DNA from: a bacterium
GTDB lineage: Bacteria > Patescibacteriota > Saccharimonadia > Saccharimonadales > SZUA-47
DNA: 63,038 nucleotides
Direction: 5' to 3'
Assembly: GCA_030427125.1 (NCBI GenBank)
Contig: JAUHXF010000003.1
Location: 1-63,038, forward strand
The translations under genes were made by a program, and so were the position numbers. This document shows positions 29,718-57,500 of this stretch, in pieces (positions within the stretch are counted from its first letter, which is position 1; every line of letters starts with the position of its first letter). A model generated the notes under the pieces. The model worked only from the letters and a program-made list of their open reading frames with translations. It was not told where the DNA came from and did no database searches.

Positions 29718-30122
29718 TTATCTCATGTACCTGTTTTGATCAACTGCGGTTGGCAAGCCTACACTTCTCGCATAAAACCAAGTGTCTATAGTCGTTCTAT
29801 AAACCTGTGATTTACTTGTTGAGAAATCAGCGGCACACTCTGCAACTTCTCCGTGGATAGCCGCCGGAATAGATACAGCATACAGGACTCGTTCTCCATT
29901 AAAATAGACGTTATCACTGAGCCTAGCAACAAAAGGGCTTTGATGTAAAATAAATTCTTGATTCTCATCGTTAAAACCCCATACTAAAGCTGCATTAACA
30001 ACAAAACTAGATGTACGTCCTATAATTCTTGAACATACTTCAAGTCTACTTCTCTCAACGGGACTTATTGCAAATGACACTTTTTCAGTCTCACACCCGT
30101 CAGGGAGTCTGCGTAGAAGCAT
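29718..30122 (-). CDS. Hypothetical protein with an internal duplication, possibly a tandem ribbon-helix-helix
   Basis: 134 aa. The two halves align: EKVSFAIS-PVERSRLEVCSRIIGRTSSFVVNAALVWGF against ERVLYAVSIPAAIHGEVAECAADFSTSKSQVYRTTIDTWFY. It occupies the slot where pyrH normally sits between tsf and frr. Confidence 0.5.
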   Translation of the reverse strand: MLLRRLPDGCETEKVSFAISPVERSRLEVCSRIIGRTSSFVVNAALVWGFNDENQEFILHQSPFVARLSDNVYFNGERVLYAVSIPAAIHGEVAECAADFSTSKSQVYRTTIDTWFYARSVGLPTAVDQNRYMR

Positions 30123-31988: not shown

Positions 31989-32016
31989 TGTACACTAATA
32001 GAATTGAAGGGTGAAT

Positions 32017-33066
32017 ATGAATCTTGAAGAGTATCAGTCAGAGCTAGACAGCCTAAAGCAAAAGCTTGAAGACCCAAGCTACTTCAGTTCAAAAGAATAC
32101 CCAAAAACTGCAAAACGAATCGCTGAACTGGAAGAGCTAATTGAGACAAACAAAAATCTGCAAAGCGCACAGAAAGCACTAGGTGAAGCTCAAGAATTAG
32201 CAAAAGGCAATGATGAACTAGCAGAACTTGCTCGTGCAGAAGTCGAAGAAACTGAAGCCAAAATTCAAGAAATTGAAACAAAGCTGCAAGAATTACTGAT
32301 TCCAAAAGATCCAAACGCAGACAAAGATTGCATTTTCGAAATCCGTGCTGGTGCTGGTGGTGATGAGTCTTCCCTGTTTGCCGGAGAGCTGTATCGCATG
32401 TACGTGAAGCAAGCCGAAATCGCTGGCTACAAAACTGAGCTGCTTGGTGAGAGCCCGTCAGAAGTTGGTGGCTATAAAGAAATTTCATTTGCAGTACGGG
32501 GTGCTGGCTCATATGGCCACTTCAAACTCGAGGCAGGTGTACACCGTGTCCAGCGAGTACCAGCGACCGAGTCACAAGGTCGAGTTCATACATCAACAGT
32601 GACAGTTGCCGTCTTGCCGGAAGCCGAGGAAACAGATATAGAGATTGACCAAAACGACTTGCAGATTGATACGTATCGCTCGAGTGGAAATGGTGGTCAG
32701 TCAGTCAACACAACCGACTCAGCTGTGCGTATCACCCACAAACCAAGCGGAATAGTCGTCACCATGCAAGACGAGAAATCACAGATAAAGAATCGTGAGA
32801 AAGCTATGGGTGTACTCCGATCGCGATTGCTTCAAGCCAAACTTGATGAAGAACAGGCTAAAGCTTCAGCCGCTCGTAAAAAACTTATCGGTTCTGGTGA
32901 CCGTTCAGAGAAAATCCGTACGTATAACTTCCCGCAGGACCGCATTACCGACCACCGAATCGGTTATTCACGCAGCAACATCCCGTCTGCCCTGTCAGGT
33001 GACATCCAAGATATCCTCGATGAGCTTAAAAAAGCCGAACACGAACTACTAAAGTCAGAAAACTAG
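32017..33066 (+). CDS. prfA: Peptide chain release factor 1
   Basis: PAT tripeptide ([16 protein letters not shown]) and GGQ ([24 protein letters not shown]). I prefer ATG 32017, with GAAGGG 5 nt upstream, over the GTG at 32011. Confidence 0.9.
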
Positions 33067-33070
33067 CCAA

Positions 33071-36000
33071 CTAGATCGTTAAGGTTAGTGTTCCTCTGTT
33101 GAGACCGTAAGCACCGTCACTATAAGCAACAGGCATCTTTAGACTTTGGACTGTAACTTCCTCTGCGTTGCTTGAATCCCCTCGATTAGTGCCAAGTGCG
33201 CCGCCATAACGCACCCCGCCCATTCTCTCGGACATAACTTCTAAATGCTCTCTCATCATGCCGCTTAAACTGCTTGAGGGTATAGATATATAGGTCGGCT
33301 CGGCATACAATACGGGGTCCCCGTTCTGATCCTGCATTAGGCGAACAATTGACCGACCTACTATATTGCCTGACTCGTTGAAAGCAGCAATAATCTTAAC
33401 GTCGGGACCAAAGTAGCCAACCAGCCCCTCACTAAAACCACCTGACGCATAATGCTGGCAGCTTCTTAGAGGCTTCTCTCCAATTTCAACTGTAGTTTTT
33501 GGACTATCGGTGTCCATTACTTCTAGCTTTGTTCTTCCAGCGTGCATTTGCTTATAGCCCTCTATTAGCCTCTGGACTGTATCAGGGATAAATGCCACCT
33601 CTTCAGGTAATTCTGATTTTATCTCGCTCAAAACACTACTCAATTCCTTTTGACGCTTACCCTCCTCTGTCAGCAGGCTGTCTTCTAGTATTTCTTGCGG
33701 CCTAAGACTGGCGATTCGAATTAAGTTGTTTAGTGTGTCTGCTTTTGCTAAAAACTTCTCGACTATTTCGATTTTAACATCAATTCCAGCACCTGCCTCA
33801 GTTATCCCGTGCTTCACGAAATCTATAAAAGGATGCTGACCGCCTTCAATTTTCTTACTAATTTCATCTATTAGCTGCTCTTCTGTGTAACCATCTTTCA
33901 TGCCTCTAAATCTATGGAGCACACCTATAGTTTGGCCCAACGCAGACCGGGCTCCTTGCAGCATACCAGCGTATTCTTCTGTCAGCTCGAACCCTGGAGC
34001 AATCATGCTCAGGTCAGCAGATGCTAGTTGAACGGCTCGATGGATCTCGGCAGAAACGTCTTCGGCTGATGTCTGTAATTCAGATTCAATGCTGGTTACA
34101 GACCCAGCCATCCAGGCTCTATATTGATCAATGCTAATGTTCACTGGTATATGGCCGGCCGCTTTCATCTGTTCAAAGCCACCCTCTTCAATCAAGCCGT
34201 ACTTCCATTCGGTGAAGCTTCCAGCAACTATCGATTCCAGCATACCCTTGAAAACCGTGCTGTATTCTTCATCCCTACAAAATCTCTGAACATATGTAGA
34301 TATCGGTTCTATGTCACCGCCAAAAGCCTCTTTTATGGCGTTTAGTTGATCTAGAGTAATATTACCTTCTACCCCTACGCTTTTGAGCGTGCGTTCAAAT
34401 ATAAATACTTCGATCTCGTCTGCTGAATTAAAGTCTGGTATATGCTCACCGTCATCAATAACTGATGCTAGATTACTGAACAGTCTCAGCGACCGCTGCT
34501 CCTCTTTCGCGCTCAACCCAGTTTTACTAATAAAACCCAAGTAAGATTGCCTCGCCGATTCTTTGAAGTCAAAAGCCCTCATCGTCATAAACAAATCAGC
34601 TATGTTGCGGCTGTAGTGCGCAACTTCCTCGCTGGTTGAGGCGTTTTTGATTCTTTTATAATATTCACCCAGAGTCTTCTCAATGCCACTAAACAGGTCC
34701 GTCATATGTCCTGTGTTGCTGACAATAAAAGCGCTGAGGTTATCATAATCACTCAACATCTCGTCAAAGACACCACTTTCTCTATAAGATTGAATAATAC
34801 TAAGTGCTTCTTTGTTTACGAGCAAATCTCCAAGCAAGTTTTCTAGCCGACTCTTTCGATGAACATGCTCTACGTCGCCGCTACCGTCTTTTTGGCTCAT
34901 AGCCTCTAATCTCTTGATTATCCCGCCAACCACAGGATCACTAAGAGCCTCATTTATATGATCTCTGTTCTTCAGGAACGCAAACTGACCGTCTTCTATC
35001 CTCCCACTCACCACTGAAAAGCTGCCAAATATTCCTTCGACCGCTTGACCTCTGTGGCCTGCAAGCCTGCGAGCGCTTAGATAGTCGCTGAGCAGAGGAT
35101 CATTGAACATATCGTGAATGTCCTCTAGGGTAGCTCCTGGATCGCTGCTTATTGATATGTATTCGACCACACCTCGCTGCAATCCTTCTCTGAATTCTAG
35201 GTCCATCAAGCGGTCATATGAACCTTTCTGGCCATCTTTTTCAGGTGCGACTTCCACAATTTGTTTCTCAAACAAGTCTTTTGCTAGCGGGCTTTTGAAA
35301 GACTCCATAAGCCGTCGAATACCTTGTTCTTTAACGCCACTGTAAGCAAATAAACTGTGTACGGATGAGGCAGATGAAGTTGGCTTAGGAGTAAATACGT
35401 TCAGTGCAACTGTCGCGGCTTCTTCTGATAGCCCGAAGCCCTCCCCGGCAACCTGCATAAACATCTGATTATAAGCGTTTTTGAAGATTTCAAAATCTTG
35501 CTTGGTAGCAGGAGAGCAAGTAGCCGGCTCCTCTAACTCTGTGCCGTTAATTCTGGCGTCCATCGCACTAATTACATCTATAGCGTGGTGCAGAATCTCG
35601 ATGTCCCTTGTGGCTGAATCTGGCGTAAAACCAATTTTTTCTGGCAGAGCTGCTAGAATCAGGGCTTGTTGCTCCCAGACATCACTAGTCGTATATTTGC
35701 TGTTTCTGCTCTCCGACTTTAGACCGAACTTAACCTGATCCATTATGGCTCCTGAGGTGTCCGGGCTAGATACAGACAGAGTCTCCGAGAGTAATACTGA
35801 GGTCGGGATTCTGGCTGGAGGAGGTGCTAGCGCACGCATTCCGCCTTGATCACTCTCTCGCATGTTAATTGATGCGTTTAACAACCCATAGGCCAATTTA
35901 ACGTTTTCGTTTTCTATTGTTTCGGTATCTACTTCTCTGACCAGCCGTATCAACTCTTTATCAATATCTTGCTCAGGATCAAGAAATTCCTGAGGTACGC

Positions 36001-36202
36001 TTCCGTTTAAATAATGAGCCCTTGTGAATCTAGCGGCAATAAGTGCGTCCAAAACACGCCTGTCAGAGCCAGCAGCACTCAGTAAATCTCTGAAGGTGTC
36101 TGCGTTGTCTTGTTCTGAGAACAATGTCATTACGCTCTGGTCTAACTGTGGATTGTGCTGCTGATCGAGAGCTATGCCCGCATTTTGCTCATTTTGAATC
36201 AT
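33071..36202 (-). CDS. Large orphan protein (1043 aa), predicted cytoplasmic, function unknown
   Basis: A single long frame with no signal peptide or TM segment. It is acidic and looks mostly helical. The C-terminal 110 aa or so look beta-rich (EKPLRSCQHYASGGFSEGLVGYFGPDVKIIAAFNESGNIVGRSIVRLMQDQNGDPVLYAEPTYI). I found no catalytic motif I recognise. It has its own consensus promoter. Confidence 0.7.
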   Translation of the reverse strand: MIQNEQNAGIALDQQHNPQLDQSVMTLFSEQDNADTFRDLLSAAGSDRRVLDALIAARFTRAHYLNGSVPQEFLDPEQDIDKELIRLVREVDTETIENENVKLAYGLLNASINMRESDQGGMRALAPPPARIPTSVLLSETLSVSSPDTSGAIMDQVKFGLKSESRNSKYTTSDVWEQQALILAALPEKIGFTPDSATRDIEILHHAIDVISAMDARINGTELEEPATCSPATKQDFEIFKNAYNQMFMQVAGEGFGLSEEAATVALNVFTPKPTSSASSVHSLFAYSGVKEQGIRRLMESFKSPLAKDLFEKQIVEVAPEKDGQKGSYDRLMDLEFREGLQRGVVEYISISSDPGATLEDIHDMFNDPLLSDYLSARRLAGHRGQAVEGIFGSFSVVSGRIEDGQFAFLKNRDHINEALSDPVVGGIIKRLEAMSQKDGSGDVEHVHRKSRLENLLGDLLVNKEALSIIQSYRESGVFDEMLSDYDNLSAFIVSNTGHMTDLFSGIEKTLGEYYKRIKNASTSEEVAHYSRNIADLFMTMRAFDFKESARQSYLGFISKTGLSAKEEQRSLRLFSNLASVIDDGEHIPDFNSADEIEVFIFERTLKSVGVEGNITLDQLNAIKEAFGGDIEPISTYVQRFCRDEEYSTVFKGMLESIVAGSFTEWKYGLIEEGGFEQMKAAGHIPVNISIDQYRAWMAGSVTSIESELQTSAEDVSAEIHRAVQLASADLSMIAPGFELTEEYAGMLQGARSALGQTIGVLHRFRGMKDGYTEEQLIDEISKKIEGGQHPFIDFVKHGITEAGAGIDVKIEIVEKFLAKADTLNNLIRIASLRPQEILEDSLLTEEGKRQKELSSVLSEIKSELPEEVAFIPDTVQRLIEGYKQMHAGRTKLEVMDTDSPKTTVEIGEKPLRSCQHYASGGFSEGLVGYFGPDVKIIAAFNESGNIVGRSIVRLMQDQNGDPVLYAEPTYISIPSSSLSGMMREHLEVMSERMGGVRYGGALGTNRGDSSNAEEVTVQSLKMPVAYSDGAYGLNRGTLTLTI

Positions 36203-36228
36203 TTTTTGTTTTCAATTTTACAGAGGTT

Positions 36229-36257
36229 ATTATAGCAAAAAATCGTGTTATTGTCAA
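36229..36257 (-). promoter_or_regulatory. Perfect consensus sigma70 promoter TTGACA-17-TATAAT driving the 1043-aa gene
   Basis: The minus strand reads TTGACA (36257..36252), a 17-nt spacer ATAACACGATTTTTTGC, and TATAAT (36234..36229). An A-rich 26-nt leader without a Shine-Dalgarno runs to ATG 36202. Confidence 0.6.
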
Positions 36258-36280
36258 TTCTTGCGCCGATAGCCTGAGTT

Positions 36281-36637
36281 TCAGCTTGCAGGCCCGTGCT
36301 GCTCAAGACGACAGCACTCTTCAATTAAAACTGCGCCACCGGCTTCAACTGCTTTTTGGGCAGAATCCATTGCTTCACCATACGCTTGCTCAATTGTCCG
36401 TTCGTCTAAACCCCGAGAGGTTTCTTCCTGTCTCCTAAATAAATCCACTAGCACTCTGGCACCGTAAGCCGCACGTGCACGAAATGGATCTACGACAGTA
36501 TCTTCTTCCCTCACACCGGGTGGGAATGGCTCGTATACAATCCGAGCACTTGCTTCCCCGCTTAATATGCGTTGTGCTTCTGTAGATTGCACGACCTGAA
36601 TAAATCTGCCCATAATTTGTGTTACACCCCAACGCAT
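36281..36637 (-). CDS. Small orphan protein (118 aa, or 110 aa from the second Met)
   Basis: An open frame with no recognisable motif and no TM segment. It sits immediately upstream of the 1043-aa gene, on the same strand, and is divergent from prmC with a 43-nt gap. Confidence 0.45.
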   Translation of the reverse strand: MRWGVTQIMGRFIQVVQSTEAQRILSGEASARIVYEPFPPGVREEDTVVDPFRARAAYGARVLVDLFRRQEETSRGLDERTIEQAYGEAMDSAQKAVEAGGAVLIEECCRLEQHGPAS

Positions 36638-36660
36638 AGCGAATGAGCCGTCAAGTCTAG

Positions 36661-36669
36661 TGATACAAT
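36661..36669 (+). promoter_or_regulatory. Candidate extended -10 promoter (TGATACAAT) for prmC, near-leaderless
   Basis: TGATACAAT ends 11 nt before ATG 36681, and there is no Shine-Dalgarno. Confidence 0.4.
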
Positions 36670-36680
36670 AAAGCTCAATT

Positions 36681-37490
36681 ATGAAAACCCGAGTTTGGCT
36701 TAAGCAAGCCGTGTTACAACTTCAAAACTCCGATATATCCACTGCTCAACTCGATGCAGAATTGCTTCTTGCGGACCGGCTCAAGAAGGACCGCTCTTGG
36801 CTGCACGCTCATCCAGATTTTGAACTGCAGAGATCGGACCTCCGCATATTGAATGAACAGATTACACGCCGCTCAAACCATGAGCCGATTGCGTATATTC
36901 GAGGAAAACAAGAATTCTTTGGACGTGAGTTTATAGTTTCACCTGCCACGCTCACGCCCCGCCCTGAGACAGAGACTATGGTTGAAATGGCTTTAAATTT
37001 ACTTAAAAAACACGCTATAAAATCAGTAGCTGACGTTGGTTCAGGTTCTGGCTGTATTAGCATTTCTTTGCAACTTGAATCGCAGACTTCAGCCAGTATT
37101 ACTGGTTATGAAATCTCACGGGAGGCCCTGGAGATTGCTCTAAAAAATGCAAAAAAACTAGGAAGCACAGTAGCGTTTCGTAAATCTGACATCACCGCTA
37201 CCAAAGAGGGGTGGTCTGAGTCAGAATTAATCCTTGCCAACCTTCCCTACGTGCCAACAGATTTCAAGATTAATAACGCAGCAACACATGAGCCGGACTT
37301 TGCTATATTTGGCGGCAAAGACGGTCTAGACTACTACAGAAAACTTTTTGAAAATCTCTCCAATCAAGTGCAATTTGTTCTTGCCGAGAGCCTCCCACCA
37401 CAACACAGCGGTCTGCAAAAAATTGCAGAGTCAAATGGCTTCAAACCCGTTGAAACCAACGACCTAATTCAGCTATTCGCGAAGAAATAA
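36681..37490 (+). CDS. prmC: Release factor glutamine N5-methyltransferase PrmC (HemK)
   Basis: SAM motif DVGSGSGCISISL and the catalytic NPPY-type motif ANLPYVP. The N-terminal helical domain begins AELLLADRL. Confidence 0.85.
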   Translation: MKTRVWLKQAVLQLQNSDISTAQLDAELLLADRLKKDRSWLHAHPDFELQRSDLRILNEQITRRSNHEPIAYIRGKQEFFGREFIVSPATLTPRPETETMVEMALNLLKKHAIKSVADVGSGSGCISISLQLESQTSASITGYEISREALEIALKNAKKLGSTVAFRKSDITATKEGWSESELILANLPYVPTDFKINNAATHEPDFAIFGGKDGLDYYRKLFENLSNQVQFVLAESLPPQHSGLQKIAESNGFKPVETNDLIQLFAKK

Positions 37491-43990: not shown

Positions 43991-46900
43991 CTATCTCACC
44001 TGTAGGCGCAACGTTGATATACCGAGCTCGGTTTCCCCATCACCTCCAGAGCACACAATACGCAATTGGACTTCTTCCGCTTCAGTTATATCTGAGCTTA
44101 CGTCGTTCCAATCAGTCTTTATGCTCGTCGCATTGTCAGCATCTACGCTGCCATCCATTGTTACCCAATCTTCAGATCCAGAGAGTTGGTATTGCATAGA
44201 ACACTGTGTTCCCGTTGAGCCAGCCGTACTAATAGATGCAATTATTCTGTACTCAGATACAGAGCGCAGATCGAGCCAGGTTCGAGGCTGACCTGGCATT
44301 TCACTCTCATCAGATTCTACCGCCCACTGCGTAATGTTATTTGCAATGATGTATTCACTTACTACAGATGTGACACAGTCAACCCATTCGTTGTCCTGGT
44401 AGCAGCGGAACTTCTGCATGTATTCGTTATAGTATTGTGCACCATTGACACCTATAGGATCATCTGGTGAGTTTGAGCGAGACAGGATGAATAATACTGC
44501 TGATGGATCAGATGAACCGCCGCCAATCTGTACCACACCGCCCTCAGTATTCACACTGAAGAGATCTATACCATTTTCATCTGCGATGTTGAACGCCTTC
44601 TCTGAAGTCACACGAAGACCAAGCGAACCATCGCCGCTCAAGGTAAATGTATCATTGCCTGCGTACGTTACTTGCAGAACTGCATCATTCGCTGCTTCAG
44701 CCTCGAGTGCAACCTGCTTCGCTTCAACGGTGTATGCGCCGAGTACGTTACCGACCGATCGAATACCACTGAAGTTGTTATCGATACCACCTGCGAGTAG
44801 TGTAATTCCATTAATGTTTACCAACTCTCCTTCTCGTGTGAGTCGTATTATTCCGTCTGTAGCGACACTGTTTACATCTATATCAGTGAACTGTTGCGGG
44901 AACTCAAGCCCATCAGCTGGGATGCTATAGTTTGTTTCTGAAACATAATATGTAAGGCCGACAAATACATCGATCAAGCCGTCTTCGCTGGCATCTTCCA
45001 TCGCGACACCTAGCGCTGTACCGGTCTGCGTCGCCTTAACCGCTCGGCCGTCTGGACCACTCGTCAGGTAATCCCCCTTCTCGATCAAGCCATTCGCTAC
45101 ACTCACTTTTGTTGGCAAACGACCCTTCAAGCCTACTGGCACACCATCGACACCGGCGTCGAGAATAATCGCTGCATCGGAAGAGACTACACCAGCAAGA
45201 CCCTTTTGGTATTGCTGACTTGATTTAGCGACTGTGCGATTATCTACAAAGTAAACTACATCACCAGGCTCTGCACCATCACTGTTCTTGTAGTTCTCGG
45301 CGATATCTGCACCATTAGAGATGTTATTGGTGCCGTCTGAAAATACATCTCCATCACTATCTACTCTAAAGACAACATTGCCGACAGAGCCAACATCACT
45401 TCTTAGGGCCAGTAGGTCGACATTTGATGTCGAGCTTGCATTATAGCCTTCAATGACATTGTCACTATATGTAAATGGACCTAGTTCAGTAATGGTAATA
45501 GTATCGATTCCAAAGTCATTATGCCAATTAGTACCTGCGGCCGGTAATGTCACAACAAATCGTACTTGCGTAGAAGGATCGCTCACCACACCACCACCTA
45601 GGTCTAAACTTTCAAAATTCCAGACATCTGTTGGACCTGTAGGCTGATCACCACCACCATACGTTCCTCGGGTCACCCAACCTGCCCCAGCTTCATTTGT
45701 TTGTACTGTTAGTATCGCAGTGTTATCATCACCTCTTTGATTCCAGTAAAAATCAATTGATAGACCATTTGTAGCATCGAACGTAGAGTTATTTGTCATA
45801 GTAAATACATCGCCGAAAGCACCAGGAGTAGAGGCTTCCGTGTATACATATCCGTCCGGGTTGCCACCCTGTCCTGAGACAGGACCGACATCTGTAGATG
45901 GAGTCTGATCGGTGTCATGAACCCAGAAACCATTGCTACCACCCGCTGCTTGTAGGCCTGGTCCTTGCGGCGACACGAACGTCCAAGCTGCTTCATCGGC
46001 ATCATTATCTGCATTAAATGTATATGGTCCGGTTGAAGTACCTGGCAGTTGTGCTGCACCAGTCGTGATCGCACCTTCGAAATAAGCAGTCGAGGACACG
46101 ATGCCGTTAGTACCAGCAACATTGAGCACTGTACCTACATCTAGGCTATTTGCAGTCGTCACTGCGCCGTTGAGGTTAACAGCACCCGTTCCTGTACTAA
46201 ACGTACCTGTTCCACTTATTGAGAAGTTTCCGGCAGTTTGCGTATATCCTGTTACGCCACTCAATGCCCCACTATTTATAATGAGTCCGTTGATTGTGTT
46301 CACGCTAGTCGGAGCTGTAATAGCATTGTTCGCAGTTAAGAAATCTACAATAACTGTAGTCGCATCAACGGTTCCTGTTGTGGAGAGACCGCCTACTGTC
46401 GCAGTGCCAGATGCATCTATCGTCGTGACTCCAGCGACTGCACCTGCATTTATAATGCCGTTATTTCCAATGTCTAGCGAACCTGCTGACAGCGCGATAC
46501 CGTTATTTGCAGTAAACAGTCCGTCAACATCGAGTGCTCCTGTAAATACTGAGTCACCCGCTACATCAATATCAAGTACGGTGTTTCCATTGGTAAAGAG
46601 CCGCAAGCCATTTGCATCAGTTGTACCGAGCTGCGCTGTGCCGCCAAATGCATTTCCACCATTTAGGAATTCCAGACCTGATGAGCCACCACCACCACCG
46701 CCACCTACAACCGCATCACTATCTACTACAAAGAAATTCCACGATCGATCAACGCGAACACCAGCAGTGCCGCCATTGTCACCTTCGTGCACATCAACAT
46801 CGAAACCAGCTGTTGAAATGTTATCTGCTGTTATGATGACGTCGTCAAGCGTTGCGACTGGCTCATCAACAGTGAGCTGGATAGTGTAGTTTGCAGTAGA

Positions 46901-49900
46901 TGCCGCTGAATCGAATGTTACCCGATAATCACCTGTTGCATTCTTAGTAACAGTTGCACCTTCTTCATTGAGAGCAGAACCAGCAACACCATCATACTTA
47001 CCAAAGGCTAGTACACCTTCAAGTAGTGGTGCGCTTGTAGGAGTGGTTAGTGAGACCCACTGTGAACCGTCATAACCCTCGAAGTCAGCACCAGTCCAGC
47101 GTATCGTACCAGCAACCGCACTCACCGTATTTCCTACGCGCAACCCGTCGTTAAACGACTGCAGTGAACTAAATCCTTGTGCAGTATCAAGTCTTGCAAT
47201 ATTGGCAGAAAGCCTTGCATCACCAATTGTTCCAGTCGTGATCTGCGTACCATTAAGGGCAGTCAATCCGCTTCCATCACCCGTGAATGATGAGGCCACA
47301 ACATTGCCGCTGCTCGTGATATCACCTCCAGATATGTCGCCTTCTACCAAAAGGCCCGCGACTTGAGATAGATCACTGTTCACAATTGAGAAGGTTGTCG
47401 TGCCCGATGCATCAAACAGGTCAAGTGTCGTTGTACCTGTACCTATGCGTTGCAAGGTATCAGCATCAAGGATAATATCGCCACTTGCGCTAGACAGTGT
47501 GAGATCTGCAAACGTACCGCTTGAAATTGTTAAGCCATTTGCAGCGGTAATATCACCGTCTATTGTCAATCCACCGTCAACAGTTAGATCATTTTCAAAC
47601 GTCGCAAGACCAGCAGATGTAAAGGTTAATGCGTTGCTTCCGTTGGTTATGATGTTGAGCCCAAATGTATCAGTCGTTCCAAGGATAGCACCTGCACCAA
47701 AACCATTTCCTCCTTGTTCAAACGCAGTTCCGCCGCCTCCGCCGCCTCCGCCACTTGCAGCAGAAACAGGGACAATCGTTGCAGATGTACCGCCATGGGT
47801 CGTGATGTTTCCAGTGCTGCCATCAACGAAGAACTCAACATAATCTCCTGCGGTTAAGTCAAGAATAACGCTTACACTTCTCTCGACAGGATCAACTGCG
47901 GTGTGCACAAACGTATCATGATTGTATACACTCGCGCCGTTCACCTGGACCAACAAGTTCGTCAACGCATTAGCGCTGGTCTCTAGCATGTAGTTTGCAT
48001 CGACTTTATAAACTCCGTCAGTTGCAATTGTGAAGCGACCGTCTGCAGGAGTGTACACAATACCGTTCGATGCATTTGTTGTGCTTGAATACGCTGCATA
48101 ACTACCTGATTGGAACACATCGTATAAAGCTGTGCTAGCATTTGAGTTCGCTGTCGTCGTAACACTGATGTAGTCGCCGGCTGGATCTACACTGCCACCA
48201 CTTGTCAAGCTCACCCAGTCAGTTCCGTTATAGACCTCGAGATCAGCACCAGTCCATCGAATATTTCCAGCATTCGTAAGTGCACTATTGCCAACGGTTA
48301 AGCCACCGCTAAACGTTGTGTTGTTATCGAAAGTGTTTGTACCGCTGAAGTTCTGCACACCATCAAGTCGAGCGATATTCGACGACAGCACAGAGTCTGA
48401 GATTGTACCGCTTGAAATGGCTGAACCGTTTAGGTCAGTTAACACTGAGCCATCACCAGAGAAGCTAAGCCCAGTAATTGAGCCTTCAACAGTTAGATTG
48501 GCTACTTCTCCTGGATCACTGTTTGTAACCACCAGCCCAGTTGCCCCGCTGTTGTCGTTGAGGTCAATTGTCGTACTACCAGCACCATTTCGACGAATAG
48601 TGTTGTCAGCCAAAACAAGCGTATCGCTGGCTGAGTCTAACGTGAGGTTACCAGCACCACCACTAGAAATCGTCAAAGCATCAGCAGCCGATATATTGCC
48701 AATATTTACCAAATCTTCACTATTAAGGTCTAGTGAATCGCCGCTCACCGTGAGGCCGTTGTTGAATGTTGCAGCACCTAATGCGTCGATTGAAAGGGCA
48801 ACATTTCCGTCCGTCACGATGTCGAGGCCATTTGTATCAGTCGTACCGATAACACCAGTAGCATCGAAAGCATTTCCACCTTGCTGGAATGCAGTCGTTC
48901 CGCCGCCACCCCCATCGTTACCGAGTCTCGTTACCGTCATACTTGTGGCATTTGAGATAGTTGTGAACGATTGTGAGGTACCAGCACCCACAAGTCGAAG
49001 CGTATCACCAGCATCAAGCTGCAGTGTCACAGTTGCAGCAGAAGTACCTTGTGTCTCTGTAGTGATTCTTCCATAGTGATAGGACTGTCCACCAGATACA
49101 TCGCTGTATCCACCACCAGTGTCAAGCTGCAGCTTCGCGTTAAATCCAGATCGAGTACCGCTTGCTAATCGACTCGTTACTTGGTAGGAAATCTCATAAT
49201 AGCCATCTTCTGTTACCGTCACTTCATCTGCTGCCAGACTCAATACCGTCGGATTTGAGTTACTAAGCGTTCCGTCGAGGTTGATAGTCGTGAATGACCC
49301 TGACGGAATTGTTGCCCCGCCAGTTGCATCAAAGAATGTTGCCGTTGCTGATGAAACTGCACCAGCACCTCCAGCTGTCAGCGAAACCCAATCAGCTCCG
49401 TTATAGACCTCGAGATCAGTGCCTTGCCAGCGGATAGTTCCAGCAGTTGTCGAGGTTGAATCGCCAAGTGTCACTCCACCTGCGAGCACTGCGTTTCCAT
49501 TCTTATCGACTGTAAGCGCATTTGAACCGTCACCCTGCAATTGGAGCAATGCCCCACTACCAGTCTGGTTGAGTCGCAATGCAGCTACTGCTGAATTGAG
49601 TGCCTGAACGCTTGATGGTGATAGTTGCGCGAGGTCATCACCGGTCAATGCGTTACCCGCTCCATCTAAAACAGCCCCGGCACGAAAGGCGTACGGGACT
49701 GCAGTGAGTTTGAAGCGTGGCGTCATCTCGCCATCCGATTCAACATTCATGCCGAGCCAAAGTTCTTGATCCCACGGTATCGTATTCGGGAATGCTGTCA
49801 CATCGCCGAGGTAGACGCTAAAGTAACCGTTGCGAATCGTGACTTGATTGCCACCTGTTCGGGATTCAGTCCAGAGTGTTGAACCACCTGTATCAACAGA

Positions 49901-50173
49901 GTAGAGATTGAACTCGATATCATAGTCACCATCATCGACAAGTGATCCGCCGTTTGTCAGCAATCGCCCCTGGAAGTTGAGGGTGTCAGACGTAGCAGCT
50001 TCAGCTGGTGTGAAGATAGCGAGAGAAGTAATAACAGATACGAACAAAATAAAAATTGGCAAAAGAAAACTAATGGTAGTTCCCTTTTGCCATTTGGCAT
50101 GCCTTTGCTTATTAGGAAGCACGTGTCGCAAAATATTGCCCGCTTTTGTTTTTGTTTTTTTGATTTCTACCAA
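43991..50173 (-). CDS. Giant modular cell-surface fibre protein (2060 aa) built from tail-fibre-like modules
   Basis: N-terminal basic segment plus TM/signal (ISFLLPIFILFVSVITSLAIFTPAEA). Three super-modules each open with a poly-Gly run followed by TAF(Q/E)QGGN(A/G)F, and contain S(F)SGDGS.LT.LNG and IRW.G.D(L/F)E.Y(N/D)G..WVSLT motifs. A MAM-like domain ends NWHNDFGIDTITI. The TTG start at 50173 is uncertain. Confidence 0.8.
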   Translation of the reverse strand: MVEIKKTKTKAGNILRHVLPNKQRHAKWQKGTTISFLLPIFILFVSVITSLAIFTPAEAATSDTLNFQGRLLTNGGSLVDDGDYDIEFNLYSVDTGGSTLWTESRTGGNQVTIRNGYFSVYLGDVTAFPNTIPWDQELWLGMNVESDGEMTPRFKLTAVPYAFRAGAVLDGAGNALTGDDLAQLSPSSVQALNSAVAALRLNQTGSGALLQLQGDGSNALTVDKNGNAVLAGGVTLGDSTSTTAGTIRWQGTDLEVYNGADWVSLTAGGAGAVSSATATFFDATGGATIPSGSFTTINLDGTLSNSNPTVLSLAADEVTVTEDGYYEISYQVTSRLASGTRSGFNAKLQLDTGGGYSDVSGGQSYHYGRITTETQGTSAATVTLQLDAGDTLRLVGAGTSQSFTTISNATSMTVTRLGNDGGGGGTTAFQQGGNAFDATGVIGTTDTNGLDIVTDGNVALSIDALGAATFNNGLTVSGDSLDLNSEDLVNIGNISAADALTISSGGAGNLTLDSASDTLVLADNTIRRNGAGSTTIDLNDNSGATGLVVTNSDPGEVANLTVEGSITGLSFSGDGSVLTDLNGSAISSGTISDSVLSSNIARLDGVQNFSGTNTFDNNTTFSGGLTVGNSALTNAGNIRWTGADLEVYNGTDWVSLTSGGSVDPAGDYISVTTTANSNASTALYDVFQSGSYAAYSSTTNASNGIVYTPADGRFTIATDGVYKVDANYMLETSANALTNLLVQVNGASVYNHDTFVHTAVDPVERSVSVILDLTAGDYVEFFVDGSTGNITTHGGTSATIVPVSAASGGGGGGGGTAFEQGGNGFGAGAILGTTDTFGLNIITNGSNALTFTSAGLATFENDLTVDGGLTIDGDITAANGLTISSGTFADLTLSSASGDIILDADTLQRIGTGTTTLDLFDASGTTTFSIVNSDLSQVAGLLVEGDISGGDITSSGNVVASSFTGDGSGLTALNGTQITTGTIGDARLSANIARLDTAQGFSSLQSFNDGLRVGNTVSAVAGTIRWTGADFEGYDGSQWVSLTTPTSAPLLEGVLAFGKYDGVAGSALNEEGATVTKNATGDYRVTFDSAASTANYTIQLTVDEPVATLDDVIITADNISTAGFDVDVHEGDNGGTAGVRVDRSWNFFVVDSDAVVGGGGGGGSSGLEFLNGGNAFGGTAQLGTTDANGLRLFTNGNTVLDIDVAGDSVFTGALDVDGLFTANNGIALSAGSLDIGNNGIINAGAVAGVTTIDASGTATVGGLSTTGTVDATTVIVDFLTANNAITAPTSVNTINGLIINSGALSGVTGYTQTAGNFSISGTGTFSTGTGAVNLNGAVTTANSLDVGTVLNVAGTNGIVSSTAYFEGAITTGAAQLPGTSTGPYTFNADNDADEAAWTFVSPQGPGLQAAGGSNGFWVHDTDQTPSTDVGPVSGQGGNPDGYVYTEASTPGAFGDVFTMTNNSTFDATNGLSIDFYWNQRGDDNTAILTVQTNEAGAGWVTRGTYGGGDQPTGPTDVWNFESLDLGGGVVSDPSTQVRFVVTLPAAGTNWHNDFGIDTITITELGPFTYSDNVIEGYNASSTSNVDLLALRSDVGSVGNVVFRVDSDGDVFSDGTNNISNGADIAENYKNSDGAEPGDVVYFVDNRTVAKSSQQYQKGLAGVVSSDAAIILDAGVDGVPVGLKGRLPTKVSVANGLIEKGDYLTSGPDGRAVKATQTGTALGVAMEDASEDGLIDVFVGLTYYVSETNYSIPADGLEFPQQFTDIDVNSVATDGIIRLTREGELVNINGITLLAGGIDNNFSGIRSVGNVLGAYTVEAKQVALEAEAANDAVLQVTYAGNDTFTLSGDGSLGLRVTSEKAFNIADENGIDLFSVNTEGGVVQIGGGSSDPSAVLFILSRSNSPDDPIGVNGAQYYNEYMQKFRCYQDNEWVDCVTSVVSEYIIANNITQWAVESDESEMPGQPRTWLDLRSVSEYRIIASISTAGSTGTQCSMQYQLSGSEDWVTMDGSVDADNATSIKTDWNDVSSDITEAEEVQLRIVCSGGDGETELGISTLRLQVR

Positions 50174-51588: not shown

Positions 51589-54500
51589 TTACTGGAGGAT
51601 CTGGTAGTCGAAGCTGTAAGTCTCGTTCTCTGCCGGAATGTCGACAAAGTGAAGAGTGAAGCCATTTTCGTCACGGGTTACAAAGTAATCTATCGTTGCT
51701 GAAGATGCGTCGAGCGGTGTTAGTGTCACGCGCGGTGCTTGATCATACGCTTCATCGAATATGATTTCTATCTGCTCTCCAGCTGCGATTGGATTCGCTA
51801 CTGTATCTGTACCCGTTTCGAATTCGATTGTTCCAGCAGTGTCATTTCCTTCGATAGTGTAGCTACTTCCCTGTCCTGTGGTGGTTGCACCTAGCACCGC
51901 AGTAGGTACATTACCGGCGGTGATAATCTTACCGTTGACTTTGAGGTCGGCTACTTCTGTGGTGCCTGTTACTTTGAGATTAGCTATGGTCGCTGTTCCT
52001 GTGACGGTTAGCTTAACGGTGGTTGCCTGGTTAGTTACGGTGATATTTTTCTTAGTGAGAGAGTTAGTTGTGGACTCGAGGACTGAGAGACGTGATTCAG
52101 CTGATGAGATGCGGGAAGTGTTTGACTGGACTTGAAGATCGAGCTCTTGGATAGAAGATGCAAGAAGAGATGTAAGGTGACGGTACTTTACTCCTGTAAG
52201 CTCACCTTCAGTGTCAAACTCTGCAAAGATCGGATTTACTGCCGCAACCTCTTCTGCAATGAAGCCAGTGTCCCAAATCTTATCATTTATGTTCCACTTA
52301 TATTTAACAGGTCGAAGTTGGCGAAGCGTTTCGAGGCCCCAAGGTAGTGTCGTAGTGTGGTCTTTGAAGCGCTGAAGCGATGTACAACGTGTGAGTGCGT
52401 AAGCTGTTACGCCAAGCTGTGTGTCGCCTGCGTTACGACAAACGGTGTTGCCTGTAAAAGCTGTGTTTGTAAAGCGAAGGTCACCAATATTCATCCCCGT
52501 AGCTCTATGATTCCCTGTTTCAAAATAGTAGTTCAATCCATCAAAGCCTAAACCTATAGTAGTCGAAGAGACATTACTAAATGTGAGATCACCACCAAGT
52601 GTTAAATTATCAGGTGAATATATTTCATTTGCGTTGTAATCAAATCTTAGATACGAAGCACCTGGCTGTGCGTTAGATACAGCTCCTGAGCCAATGAAGC
52701 CATAGCCATCCCCTCTGTATGTCATGTGCATAGAAGCTGCACCAGCCAATCCAGATTCACCTATTGATATGATGGCACCCTGACTGGTCCAGTTATCACC
52801 AGTATTTGGCGAAGCCAGTACAAGAGCAGGCTGAGCTAAGCCCGGTGCGACATACAGATCGCCGTTCGGATCAATTCTTAGCTGTCCGGCACTTGATGAA
52901 CAGCCCGAGGCTGTACAGTTTGTTCCAAACCTTAAGTCTGTGCCACTTGCAGACCAAATCATTGATCTGCCCGTACCTTCACTAAATACTAATCCTCCAC
53001 CCCAGTTCCCTTCTACCCGAATTGCGGCATCATCGTTTGATGTCGGGCTGAATCCAGCCCTCAATACAGTAAGGGCATTATCTGGAGCAGTGTTTCCTAT
53101 GCCGACATTTCCATTAGCTCTTGCTGTCAATATAGCTGTGTCATATGTAAAGTCTCCTGTATAGTTACCGCCGCCGCTGATAATACTAAAAGCGTCTGCT
53201 CCATCATTTTCATATAGTCCGACAACCAGATGTCCTGAATTGGCTCCCTGTATTAAACCGCCGAAGGTAGATCCAGGTACTAGACTTGTGATATCGGTAT
53301 CTCCAGAGCCATAAGATAATAGCTGAATAGAATTACTATTGACACCTATCTTTCCAGTAAAATCAAAATCACCTGACGTATTTACAGTGAGTCGCACAGT
53401 ACCGGCAGTCGAAAGGTTTGGTTCATGGAATAATCTGAGCGTACTAGAAGAGTTGTCTAGATTCCAAACAACATTTGCAGCAGGGTTTGTTGCGTTTCCT
53501 AGTGTGAGCCTAGATTGTCCAGAGCCAGCAACGAGCAAGTTTCCTCCCCACACGGTTGTTTTTACATCTGTGTCATGCTGTGTAGATGTGCCGATACCCA
53601 CAAAATCTCCGGAATTTACCAAAGTAGTAGACCCACCTGACGATGTCCATGCGCCACTTCCTCCACTACAGTTACCAAGGTTGACTAGACATACCTCATC
53701 GGTACCCACAAATGCTGGTATATCTAATACGGTATCGCCTCCAAGGTTATCAACTTGCAATGTTACTGTTTGACCAGTGCCATCAGATATTCGTAGTTGC
53801 CCTTGAGAAGTTGGTTCTCCAACTAGAACAGTGTCCCTGAGGAAAGTTGTGCCTCCAGCAGACTGGATGACATAGTTGTTCCCCAAAGAAGCTTGGCCGC
53901 CGTAGACTGTGTTGGTTCCTTGATCAAGTATTGTGCTGGATCCAGAACCGTAAAATGTGTTACCTTCAAGAATTGTCCCATCCGCTGACGATTGAATATG
54001 GATTGCGTAACCTGTACCTGAAGTATTAGTAATAAAGTTGTTTGAAATCTTTATATTATCACCTATAACATTTATACCGTCCAATCCCGAAGAATCTAGG
54101 CCGAAGTTTTCTATTCTGTTATTACTCACTATTGTATCCACGGATCCAGAATTTATATAAATTCCATCGTACCCCGTATCCTTGATATTATTGCCATCTA
54201 TTACAGTATTTTCTGATTGTGAAAATATACCATAGTCACTGCTAATATTGGATATTATATTGTTAGTCACAATTGTGTTGTTGGATTCAGTCTCTAAAGC
54301 TATGCCAGGATCACTTATTGATCCTGAGATAGTATTATTTGAGATAATATTCTCAAGAGAATTTTGTATTCGTATACCATAGCCACCAGCTGATATTGTG
54401 TTGCCTTCTATTAAGGTTCCTGATCTCAAACCTGCACTACCGTTAGCAACGTATATCGTATCTGCTGTTGCAATATTTGAGGTGAAAGAGTTGCCGGATA

Positions 54501-57500
54501 TTACATTGTTTTGAGCTATTCCTGTAGGAGAATATATGTATATAGCATGGTTAAAGGCAGGACCATTATAATCTGTTAATGTACTATTGATAACTTTGTT
54601 ATTTGAACTATCTTGAAAATGTATATTTGATCCATATGCAAAGTTAATGATGTTTACATTTTCTATAATTCCTCCAACCCTTCTTGTAGTTGGTTCTCCG
54701 ACATCGTCAAAATATATAGCTCGTTGAGTGCCACCAGTACCCAGGGAGCCGTCAAGTGTCAGATTACGGATAGTTTGACCGGTTCTATTTGTACCTGTAG
54801 CTTGAATCAAGTTGTCTGTTCCGGCACCTACTGAAAGCCTAATAATTGTGCCAATTCCTGCTCCTTCAAGAGTGGTGTTATTAGGTATGAGGATTGTACC
54901 GTCTGCAGTATACGTGCCTTCTGCAAGGTAGACTTTACCACCTGCCGCCGCAGAAAGCGCTGAGTTAATCTCTGTTTCGTCGCTTGTACCGTCAGTGTAG
55001 TAATCAGCTGTGATGCCTGAGCCTGATGGAGCGACGATGAAAGTAGCTGTCTTCGGACCGGCACATGCTCCCCAGACAGGCAGCGTGCCGTTTGATACAA
55101 GACATTGGCCATTGGTACCTATACTTCTTTTAGCTATAGTTGTGCTGTTTGATGCATAGAGAATATCGCCGGTTGTATATGAAGTGATGCCAGTACCGCC
55201 GCGAGCAGTTGTTAATGTCCCACCTGTAAAGAATGTACCAGCATCTGCATTCGTTACATTGCTCAAAACACCTGTGCTGTTTATTCTAGTTGTGCCAGCT
55301 GTACGTATTTCAGAACCAGCATCAACAGTCTGATCGACATATAATCTGCCATCATTTGTGAGCGACATAGCTCCTTGTGACTGTGAGTGACCATCTTGGC
55401 CCCACCACCAACCACGGTTAGCCGTGTTGTTCATTTGGAATGTCATGGCATAACCATTTAGGTATCCGTATGTAAAGGAGTTTTGCATACCTATTGTGTA
55501 AAGGTTGCTGTTCCAAACCCGAATCTTGTCTCTTGTGCTAGTTGAGTTTGCAGTGTAGACACCAGAATTAGTAATATTCCCGAAAGTTACGCTGTCTGTA
55601 GTCTGAACATTTTGATTCATATCATATAGTTCATTCGCACCTTGACCGGTGTCTAAGGTAGTAGCTGTCAAAGCACCTGAGAATGATCCTGAGCCAGCAT
55701 TTACGATGTTCCTGCTGCCATCGATGATTGCTGTGGTGCCTATTTTAAGATCCCTAACTCGCAGTGTTTCATAGCCGGTACCAGGATTATCTAACACGGC
55801 AAGATCACCGGATGTGTCACCCTCTAGGAAACCAAACTGCGACGCTACTGCACCACCGAGATGGAAGCCAATGCGTGGAGACCTACCGGATGCGCTTGTT
55901 TCGTACACTTCGATACCAGCCTGTGAATATGCAGCTCCACTGCTTCCTGTGAATCTTTGTTCAGCAGTGAAAAGCTGGTTAGATCGATCAAGTAGTGCAA
56001 CGTTTGAAGTCAATCGAGCATCAGCTAGAGTGCCTGAACTGATGTTAGAAGCGTTGAGGCTAGTCAGCGAAGCTCCAGAACCAGAGAATAGATTACCATT
56101 GATAGTACCCGGCACCGTAAGAGAACCATCTGCTCCGAAAGTAGAAGCATAACTTGCTGCATAGCTGCTCTGTCTATTTGTTATTACTTGAACTGCACCG
56201 TCTGCAGTCAGGTATAACTCTTCGCTGGTTGTACCTGCAGCAATTCCAAGATCACTAACCAATGCGACACCGTTGTCTCCCGCATGTAGAATAGTTGAAC
56301 TATCTGAATACTGAACATAGCCGCCTTGGTTTGTAATTTGCTGCATTGCACCACCAGTCCAGGCTAATCTGTTGTTGCCTGTCGAAGCGCCTAAAGTAAC
56401 TGAGTTAAATGTAGGATTGTCGGATGTTCTGAGGTTTTGGTTACCAAGATATCCAGCGATAGTATTCACTTCTTGTGCGCCGTTGCCTGTGTTGATGGTT
56501 GCGAAGGTTGGTGCAGATGTTGTTGCGATATCCTGAGGCAAGCTTAGAGTAATGTTCGATCCAGATGGAGTAACCGTTATTTGGTTAGCTGTACCTACGA
56601 CGTTAAGGTTACCTGTTAGTGAATTTAAGCTCAGTACTCCGGAACCCGCGGATGCGTAATTACAATTATTGCTAGCGTCACAAATCTCATTTCCAAATAC
56701 ATATGCATCATTTGTATCTGCCTCAAGCTGAAGAGGGTGTGGACCTTCCCATGCATCGTCTTCGTTGCGATCCGCCAATACATAGAAGTTGTTCGAATTC
56801 ACATGAATCCAAAAATTGTCGTTTGCATCGCTATCGTTAAAGTAAAGCTGAGGTGAAGCTTCAGTCAATGTTAGTTCTGCTCCAAATGAAGGACTGTCGG
56901 TCGTACGCAAGTTTTGGTTACCTAGGTACTCAGCAATTGTGTTTACTTCAAGCGCACCATTCCCAGTATCTATGGTAGAGATATTCTGAAGGGCGCCGGC
57001 ATTAGTCAGTCTAGTTGTTCCTGCTGTTTGTATCGCTCCAGTTACAAAATTAGTGTTTCCTGTGCCCTGATCGATTATCAATCTATCGGCGCTTCCATCT
57101 GTCACTACAAGGTCATCACTGGCTGCACCGTCATTCCAGATACTCCATCTTTCAACACTCTGGTTATAGAACGCTATTCCTATATCTCTATCAAAGTTAG
57201 AGTTAAGTTGAAGTGCAGTTCTATTACCTTGGTTTGCAGTGTTATTAATACGTGCAATTGCAGTTCCTTGACTCTGTCCGTCGTTTACAGTGAAGCCTCC
57301 CCCTACTGTAATATCGCCACCACTCTCTGTAATCACTGAATCGCCTAGCGTTCCAGTTCCAGTAAATACTGGTACTGTTCCGCTTGTTCCAGAGCCAGTT
57401 ATCGCTCCTGAGCCAGCAGTACAGGTAACGAGTTGGTTTGAGCCGTTGAGACAGATTGCTGAGCCTGTGCCTGCTCCTAAGCCTGTGTAAGTGATTGTGC

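Follow-up and report, generated by a model that had tools for sequence, protein, structure and literature searches.

What occupies the junction between the release factor gene prfA and the methyltransferase gene prmC in a saccharibacterial genome, where 3.6 kilobases (kb) of opposite-strand DNA separate two genes that are neighbors in related organisms? The stretch of DNA examined here, referred to below as the window, comprises 63,038 nucleotides (nt) of contig JAUHXF010000003.1 (assembly GCA_030427125.1, Saccharimonadales lineage SZUA-47), and its prfA-prmC insert contains a large open reading frame (ORF) of 1043 amino acids (aa) and a small one of 118 aa. An initial annotation of the window considered the two ORFs to be an orphan cassette resembling toxin/immunity, effector/chaperone or defence gene pairs. 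Our results indicate that the locus holds an undescribed protein family rather than an undescribed two-gene system. Judging from the fold and from the conservation pattern, we give about even odds (a probability of roughly 0.5) to the reading that the large gene encodes, as a single-gene unit, a highly expressed, soluble scaffold-plus-enzyme protein, the divergent GNAT domain of which would acylate a macromolecule that the helical region recognises as its target.

The description of the large protein as an orphan did not survive an exhaustive search with HMMER, in which 1.84 billion cluster representatives were scanned and 312 relatives were recovered at E<=1e-3, 189 at E<=1e-10 and 50 at E<=1e-30. 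By these profile matches the protein is a member of an unannotated family that is widespread and comprises no fewer than 312 clusters (at 50% identity). Its closest relatives (P0002-P0012; phmmer E 1e-94 to 1e-68) align with about residues 503-1042 of the window protein and are 33-35% identical to it over that span. Homologues are typically 850-1700 aa long and match residues from about 500 to 1043, most strongly over 820-1043. The few members with a named source are all called 'hypothetical protein' and come from metagenome-assembled genomes (MAGs) labelled 'bacterium', 'Patescibacteria group bacterium' or, once, 'Candidatus Dadabacteria'. Word-indexed homologue searches returned the query alone, both from the single protein and from a 66-sequence alignment, and six fragments from a C-terminal alignment; because identity within the family is low, such searches are uninformative here and exhaustive HMMER is required. 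A scan with the domain alignment gave nothing in viral contigs and two loci only in metagenome contigs. Comparison with plasmids by tblastn yielded three proteins from Bacillota megaplasmids, and the two that we examined, WP_014600065.1 and WJV31901.1, match the family hidden Markov model (HMM) at E 4e-27 and 8e-32, respectively, over the whole C-terminal domain.

The family is not represented in curated collections. As the initial annotation had stated, neither insert protein has a recognisable motif or family assignment: the 1043-aa protein has zero matches in Pfam, NCBIfam (E<=1), PADLOC and PHROGs, and the 118-aa protein is likewise not covered by these libraries. Seven family representatives compared with Pfam gave no real domain, only one marginal match to an unrelated eukaryotic model. 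The large protein belongs to no known housekeeping family, membership of which would have overturned the idea of an undescribed element, and a literature search combining Saccharibacteria with GNAT returned nothing relevant. Although the fold itself is known, we found no description of the family, of its sequence signature or of the joining of such a domain to a huge helical scaffold in the libraries and literature searched.

Members of the family are found in varied genomic contexts. With X denoting the family gene, we observed the arrangements ftsK|X|rpsF-ssb-rpsR(-efp) and ROK kinase gene|X|rpsA-infB, while other members adjoin rhodanese, pilus, NUDIX, parAB or CNNM genes. They are mostly co-oriented with their neighbors, and no small partner gene recurs beside them. 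Two members that occupy the same ftsK|rpsF slot, P0151 and P0003, are 42% identical over their full length, as compared with 75% for the flanking FtsK and 80% for the flanking RNase J. In these sequence comparisons the divergence of the family is about twice that of flanking housekeeping genes, and yet its members can be aligned from end to end; judged by eye against the P0151/P0003 alignment, even the extreme N-terminus of the window protein looks like that of subfamily members.

The three-dimensional model of the full-length protein was obtained with AlphaFold2 from a 66-sequence alignment (A1). Its predicted local distance difference test score (pLDDT) is 75 overall and about 90 over residues 500-1043, and the best HMMER stretches also begin at about residue 500. 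According to DSSP, the model consists of nearly nothing but helices up to about residue 885, followed by an alpha/beta domain, which corresponds to the distinct C-terminal module that the initial annotation had proposed. The features of the large gene are as follows:

33071..36202, minus strand: large ORF of 1043 aa; its product ends in a GNAT-like domain and belongs to an unannotated family (ORF list, homologues, model)
34706..36202, minus strand: variable, low-confidence helical N-terminal half, aa 1-499 (pLDDT mostly 30-80)
33527..34705, minus strand: conserved all-helical scaffold, aa about 500-892, with invariant Y637, P686 and W697 (HMMER, pLDDT, DSSP)
33074..33526, minus strand: C-terminal GNAT-fold domain, aa 893-1043, the best-conserved part of the family (Foldseek, invariant residues)
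33449..33463, minus strand: S-C-Q-H-Y motif, aa 914-918, in the alpha1-alpha2 loop (conservation count)

Structural comparison places the C-terminal domain in the GNAT superfamily. Foldseek matched the full model to GNAT acetyltransferases at probabilities of 0.95-1.0. A model of the domain only gave 51 PDB matches at E<=1e-3, the best 50 of which all have the GNAT fold (E 7e-5 to 9e-4, probability 1.00, template-modelling (TM) scores of 0.35-0.52); they include Hpa2, SSAT, AAC(6'), AAC(3), RimI-type enzymes, NatD, GNA1 and the GNAT-like domain of ICL2. The order of elements is beta1 (893-898)-alpha1-[loop 906-923]-alpha2-beta2-beta3-beta4-alpha3 (977-993)-beta5-[loop]-beta6, followed by short C-terminal strands. 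This DSSP order is that of the core GNAT fold with the exception of helix alpha4, and residues 893-1043 share it with Hpa2 (1qsm), SSAT (2b4b), AAC(6')-Ih (4e8o), a RimI-type enzyme (7n1l) and NatD/NAA40 (7kd7). We regard the assignment of the predicted domain to the GNAT fold as solid and the relationship as distant. A Foldseek search of BFVD returned acetyltransferases of phages together with several phage proteins of no assigned function, but no match reached E<=1e-3.

Two other leads came to nothing. A PDB profile search with the full alignment matched designed helical repeats only, an effect of helical composition. A PcfJ-like reading of the region around SCQ found no Pfam match and a probability of only 0.07-0.14 in the BFVD Foldseek search, and the literature search for PcfJ led to pCFJ plasmids, which offer no support.

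Conservation, computed over 66 sequences with a mean column identity of 15%, is concentrated in a sharply defined set of residues. The invariant positions are Y637, P686, W697, G908, P911, C915, Q916, L927, R950, R954, Y971, Y1027 and D1029, all of which are present in the window protein, and D897, Y918, G921, Y930, K936, G961, E968, K990, P1024 and G1033 are conserved in at least 90% of the sequences. The SCQHY segment had been noted as containing a Cys-His pair. The pair does not hold in the family, where position 917 is variable (H in 40, N in 16, S in 8 and D in 2 sequences) and the invariant neighbor of C915 is Q916 (each 66/66); Y918 is found in 60/66. Homologues from Bacillota retain the C, R..R, ERxY and YxD elements.

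A conserved acidic residue at the end of beta4 and invariant tyrosines at positions where GNAT enzymes often carry a general base or acid are further points of resemblance to this superfamily. The window family differs from it in having no profile similarity, no Q/R-x-x-G-x-G/A loop and a variable loop in place of alpha4, as well as in possessing an invariant Cys-Gln in the alpha1-alpha2 loop and a fusion to a helical scaffold of about 880 aa.

Several of these observations, and some others, weigh against a catalytic GNAT domain. The Foldseek matches have modest TM scores (0.35-0.55), root-mean-square deviations of 5-8 A with the domain-only model and 4-10 A overall, and sequence identities of 8-16%, and the domain-only model is moderately confident (pLDDT 72.7). 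In place of helix alpha4 the model has a loop (aa 1002-1014) that varies between members and is predicted with low confidence. Inspection of the alignment did not reveal the pyrophosphate loop of GNAT motif A, Q/R-x-x-G-x-G/A, between beta4 and alpha3, where the family has E-x-I-Y-S-S-x-x-S-x-x-V and the window protein E-P-T-Y-I-S-I-P-S-S-S. Curated acetyltransferase models (Pfam Acetyltransf_*, NCBIfam) were not matched by the window protein at E<=1, nor were curated models matched by 25 C-terminal domains at E<=10, and none of the matches of seven other homologues at E<=0.01 was an acetyltransferase; a sequence-profile search of the PDB with the domain alignment was empty. The window protein has Met at position 990, where 64/66 members have Lys. 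Finally, our grouping of the invariant polar residues was read from sequence and secondary structure only.

The absence of motif A and alpha4, the lack of a sequence-profile link to any acetyltransferase family and the loss of the near-invariant Lys990 in the window protein are what would be expected of a GNAT-like module that no longer binds acyl-CoA (CoA, coenzyme A) and whose role in the large scaffold protein is structural or consists in binding a ligand or another protein. We nevertheless hold this explanation to be unlikely. Ten residues are invariant and some twelve more nearly so across 66 sequences at 15% mean column identity, most of them polar or aromatic, and the Bacillota homologues keep the same residues. 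Conservation of this kind is seen more typically at active or ligand sites than in purely structural domains.

The same missing elements, a GNAT fold without the CoA loop and alpha4, also allow for a transferase with a donor other than acyl-CoA, for example acyl carrier protein-bound acyl groups or aminoacyl-tRNA, the latter as used by FemX, L/F-transferase and ATE1, which have GNAT-type folds. The target of such an enzyme may lie in the translation apparatus, given that family members adjoin translation genes (prfA/prmC here, rpsF-ssb-rpsR-efp and rpsA-infB elsewhere). Neighborhoods of this kind are expected by chance, since small genomes of the Candidate Phyla Radiation (CPR) are rich in translation genes; other members have unrelated neighbors, and no aminoacyl-transferase is found among the best 50 Foldseek matches. 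We consider this explanation quite improbable.

On the preferred reading, the GNAT-like domain would be catalytic and would transfer an acyl group, most simply an acetyl group from acyl-CoA, with the chemistry presumably carried out by four pairs of residues: C915/Q916, which lie in the substrate loop between alpha1 and alpha2, R950/R954 in strand beta3, E968/Y971 where beta4 ends, and Y1027/D1029 in the C-terminal strands. The helical scaffold of about 880 residues that precedes this divergent domain of 150 residues in the model would select a macromolecular substrate or partner. Catalysis, the acyl donor and the role of the scaffold are what we infer from the fold and the invariant residues.

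This arrangement may be compared with the NatA-type complexes of eukaryotes and archaea, in which a large helical scaffold, Naa15, is combined with the GNAT protein Naa10. The likeness, which is an analogy only, consists of a very large all-helical scaffold joined to a small GNAT module, and the structural matches include NatD as well as enzymes of the RimI type. In the window protein the two parts lie within one polypeptide, Foldseek gave no match to Naa15 or to a tetratricopeptide repeat (TPR) scaffold, and there is no evidence for ribosome association.

The geometry of the insert and of its flanks bears on the question of whether the large gene acts by itself. The remaining features of the locus are the following:

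36229..36257, minus strand: perfect sigma-70 consensus promoter TTGACA-17-TATAAT, TG-extended (pattern scan, 12/12 match)
36281..36637, minus strand: small ORF, 118 aa (ORF list, codon score)
32011..33066, plus strand: prfA, peptide chain release factor 1, left flank (PCRF and RF-1 domains; NCBIfam PRK00591, E 2.9e-139)
33067..33070: convergent stop-to-stop spacer of 4 nt between prfA and the large ORF (direct sequence reading)
36638..36680: divergent ATG-to-ATG spacer of 43 nt between the small ORF and prmC (direct sequence reading)
36681..37490, plus strand: prmC, release-factor glutamine methyltransferase, right flank (PrmC_N and MTS; TIGR03534, E 5.8e-60)

Most of what the initial annotation had said about this layout was borne out. 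Both ORFs of the insert of about 3.6 kb are present at 33071..36202 and 36281..36637, on the strand opposite to prfA and prmC; the junctions are as tight as described, 4 nt to the prfA stop and 43 nt to the prmC start; and the curated models PRK00591 and TIGR03534 confirm the identity of the flanking genes. No terminator-like site was seen in the 4-nt spacer, and an Rfam scan of the window from 31 to 38 kb returned nothing meaningful. The proposed lack of a signal peptide or transmembrane (TM) segment agrees with a hydropathy scan, in which the maximum Kyte-Doolittle 19-mer is 0.92 for the 1043-aa and 0.56 for the 118-aa protein, so that neither has a hydrophobic segment. Both proteins are acidic, with isoelectric points of 4.8 and 4.9, respectively. 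The large ORF has a codon score of 0.171 in frame as compared with <= -0.45 in its other frames.

The large gene was also correctly said to have a perfect consensus promoter of its own (TTGACA-17-TATAAT at 36257..36229 on the minus strand, 12/12). Located 26 nt upstream of the ATG of the 1043-aa ORF, inside the 78-nt gap between the two ORFs, it is the sole perfect consensus promoter in the window, with a chance expectation of 0.02; the assignment was made by pattern scan only. Its position between the ORFs argues that the large gene is transcribed alone, and the predicted promoter would be a very strong one.

The small ORF is in all likelihood a genuine gene, although one confined to its lineage: it scores 0.119 for codon usage in frame as compared with -0.31 to -0.75 in its other frames, with true genes averaging 0.267 +/- 0.094 and off-frame scores elsewhere reaching at most -0.19. 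It has no match in Pfam, NCBIfam, PADLOC, PHROGs, PDB, phages or plasmids, and tblastn of the 118-aa protein over the loci searched, including those of family members, gave zero matches. No relatives were found, a result obtained without a sensitive whole-database search, which is to be counted against the single-gene reading. There is no demonstrated link between the small ORF and the large gene, and it is not a conserved partner of the latter. We therefore regard the insert as one putative functional unit, the 1043-aa gene, and a neighbor, the 118-aa ORF.

The varied contexts of the family, the lack of a recurring partner and the promoter between the ORFs leave the toxin-antitoxin, effector-chaperone and defence interpretations unsupported. 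PADLOC-DB 2.0 has no defence family that matches either insert protein at E<=1, toxin-antitoxin models match neither, and Pfam and NCBIfam identify no ribbon-helix-helix (RHH)/DUF1778 or any other domain in the 118-aa ORF. With the only consensus promoter of the pattern scan in the 78-nt gap between them, the two ORFs do not have the appearance of a bicistronic operon.

The closest known parallel to a two-gene cassette would be the GNAT/RHH type II toxin-antitoxin systems TacAT, AtaRT and KacAT, in which a stand-alone GNAT toxin of about 170 aa is accompanied by an RHH/DUF1778 antitoxin and the pair is conserved and co-transcribed. A small gene lies upstream of a GNAT-fold gene in the window as well, directly 5' of it, but a stand-alone toxin, an RHH/DUF1778 protein and a conserved, co-transcribed pair do not hold for the window pair. 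It is also true that a sister genome, described below, has a small and a large gene at the same site with a promoter before the small one, and that the Bacillota homologues, whose surroundings include an integrase, DUF262 and GIY-YIG genes, are preceded by a conserved partner, albeit one of about 645 aa. In opposition to this, the 118-aa ORF has no homologue beside family members in the loci searched and no RHH, DUF1778 or other domain, the strongest promoter separates the two genes, PADLOC and PHROGs are silent on both proteins and phages are unmatched, and the GNAT domain forms the tail of a 1043-aa protein, unlike a toxin of about 170 aa. We rank a toxin/immunity, effector/chaperone or anti-phage cassette as the least likely of the explanations considered; it is largely refuted by the lack of co-occurrence.

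The two Bacillota proteins, WP_014600065.1 from Paenibacillus polymyxa pPPM1a and WJV31901.1 from a Rossellomorea megaplasmid, have the C-terminal domain in common with the window protein and are likewise large and helical. They differ from the window protein in their length of 823-837 aa, the replacement of Gln916, an insertion of about 40 aa between beta3 and beta4, and their location on megaplasmids downstream of a conserved hypothetical protein of about 645 aa. In both loci (L097:2399-6849 in P. polymyxa pPPM1a and L098:2443-6885 in Rossellomorea) the conserved pair of about 645 aa and 823-837 aa has genes for an integrase, an SOS-response peptidase, DUF262 and GIY-YIG proteins in its vicinity, and there it might be a genuine two-gene unit.

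In order to place the insert in its evolutionary context we turn to the prfA|prmC junction in relatives. The closest relatives of the window prfA among GTDB genomes are from Saccharibacteria MAGs. In five more distant Saccharibacteria (prfA 62-71% identical), prmC directly follows prfA and the same htrA-like gene is found downstream. This adjacency indicates that the 3.6-kb insertion is derived, and it bears out the view that the insert splits an otherwise adjacent gene pair; a universal, syntenic insertion, which would have pointed to an ancestral core gene, is not what these genomes show. The split is a matter of local gene-order variation.

In the two closest genomes the junction contains other genes. 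The sister genome L001 (JAUIBQ010000010.1, 11062-14927; prfA 76% identical) has at prfA|prmC a minus-strand pair encoding proteins of 170 aa and 1060 aa, with an 11/12 TG-extended promoter upstream of the small ORF. DNA synteny between the window and L001 breaks off near the end of prfA, at about position 33050 of the window, and is found again from about 36849 onwards, within prmC. Homology of the window pair to the L001 pair was rejected by BLASTP, phmmer, hmmsearch, hhalign (probability 0.4) and blastn/tblastx. As the family can be aligned despite its fast divergence, an orthologue in L001 should be detectable, and the 1060-aa protein is thus a non-orthologous occupant of the site. Neither it nor the 170-aa protein has a match in Pfam, PADLOC, PDB or plasmids. 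The small ORFs of the window and L001 have in common an 11-residue motif, FPPGVREEDTV (window 36494-36526) and FPPDLRESDTI (L001 14460-14492), with a pairwise E of 0.001, which is probably due to chance. In the other genome (L002, CAYNWE010000128.1, 1040-2458; prfA 74% identical) a plus-strand ORF with an N-terminal signal-peptide-like segment and an Ig-like repeat sequence lies directly after prfA and runs off the end of the contig.

In this sub-clade the prfA|prmC junction is therefore a variable site, the cargo of which differs between all three of the closest genomes, and on the preferred reading the large gene would have landed, or been swapped in, there in a recent ancestor. One could go further and suggest a dedicated exchange site, at which unrelated, fast-evolving, opposite-strand proteins of about 1050 aa, each with a small ORF ahead of it, are swapped between prfA and prmC, the cargos of the window (with a new GNAT-like acyltransferase head), of the sister (with another C-terminal module) and of the third genome (a secreted Ig-like protein) being alternative states of a polymorphic host-interaction or effector locus built around an undescribed enzymatic domain family; we put this forward as a speculative and rather improbable extension. 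An origin of the insert as a mobile element or genomic island was rejected: its composition is ordinary (GC content 0.454 in a window ranging from about 0.43 to 0.47; codon distance 0.279, within the range of other genes), it has no flanking repeats and no phage match, and the window contains no tRNA genes.

Saccharibacteria are epibionts, and the variable site also invites the explanation that the large protein is an effector directed at the host, which after putative non-classical export would acylate a protein of the basibiont, with prfA|prmC as an effector-swap locus. Divergence at about twice the level of flanking housekeeping genes, the variable chromosomal position of the family, the different protein of about 1060 aa in a similar layout at the same site of L001, the strong promoter and the type IV pilus genes adjoining one homologue are all consistent with such a role. 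They have to be set against the lack of a signal peptide or TM segment, the lack of a secretion-system gene consistently adjacent to family members and the many homologues that are co-oriented within strings of housekeeping genes, and we regard this explanation as doubtful.

Other regions of the window show features unrelated to the insert. The last third contains giant ORFs of 2060 aa and 3793 aa on the minus strand (43991-50173 and 51589-62970), the latter of which includes a dip in GC content to 0.376 at 54-55 kb. Cumulative GC skew reaches its minimum at about 55000-59000 and the skew changes sign towards the end of the window, which could reflect a replication origin or terminus, or else the strand and composition of the giant ORF. 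A 134-aa ORF adjoining tsf (29718-30122, minus strand) has a codon-usage score of -0.05 as compared with 0.27 for typical genes, and may not be a real gene or may be lineage-specific.

For the interpretation of this locus the negative outcome matters too, in that it is not a new defence or toxin-antitoxin system. What calls for attention is that tiny Patescibacteria (CPR) genomes spend 3-4 kb on this gene, and that hundreds of sequence clusters without Pfam, NCBIfam or PDB coverage share a sharply conserved polar set on a GNAT scaffold without the usual acetyl-CoA loop. Its rapid divergence, its changing location and the strong promoter make it reasonable, if unproven, to consider the family for a part in epibiotic life. 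Once defined, the family would form a new branch of the acyltransferase superfamily, and a 'hypothetical protein' that recurs throughout microbial dark matter would receive an annotation.

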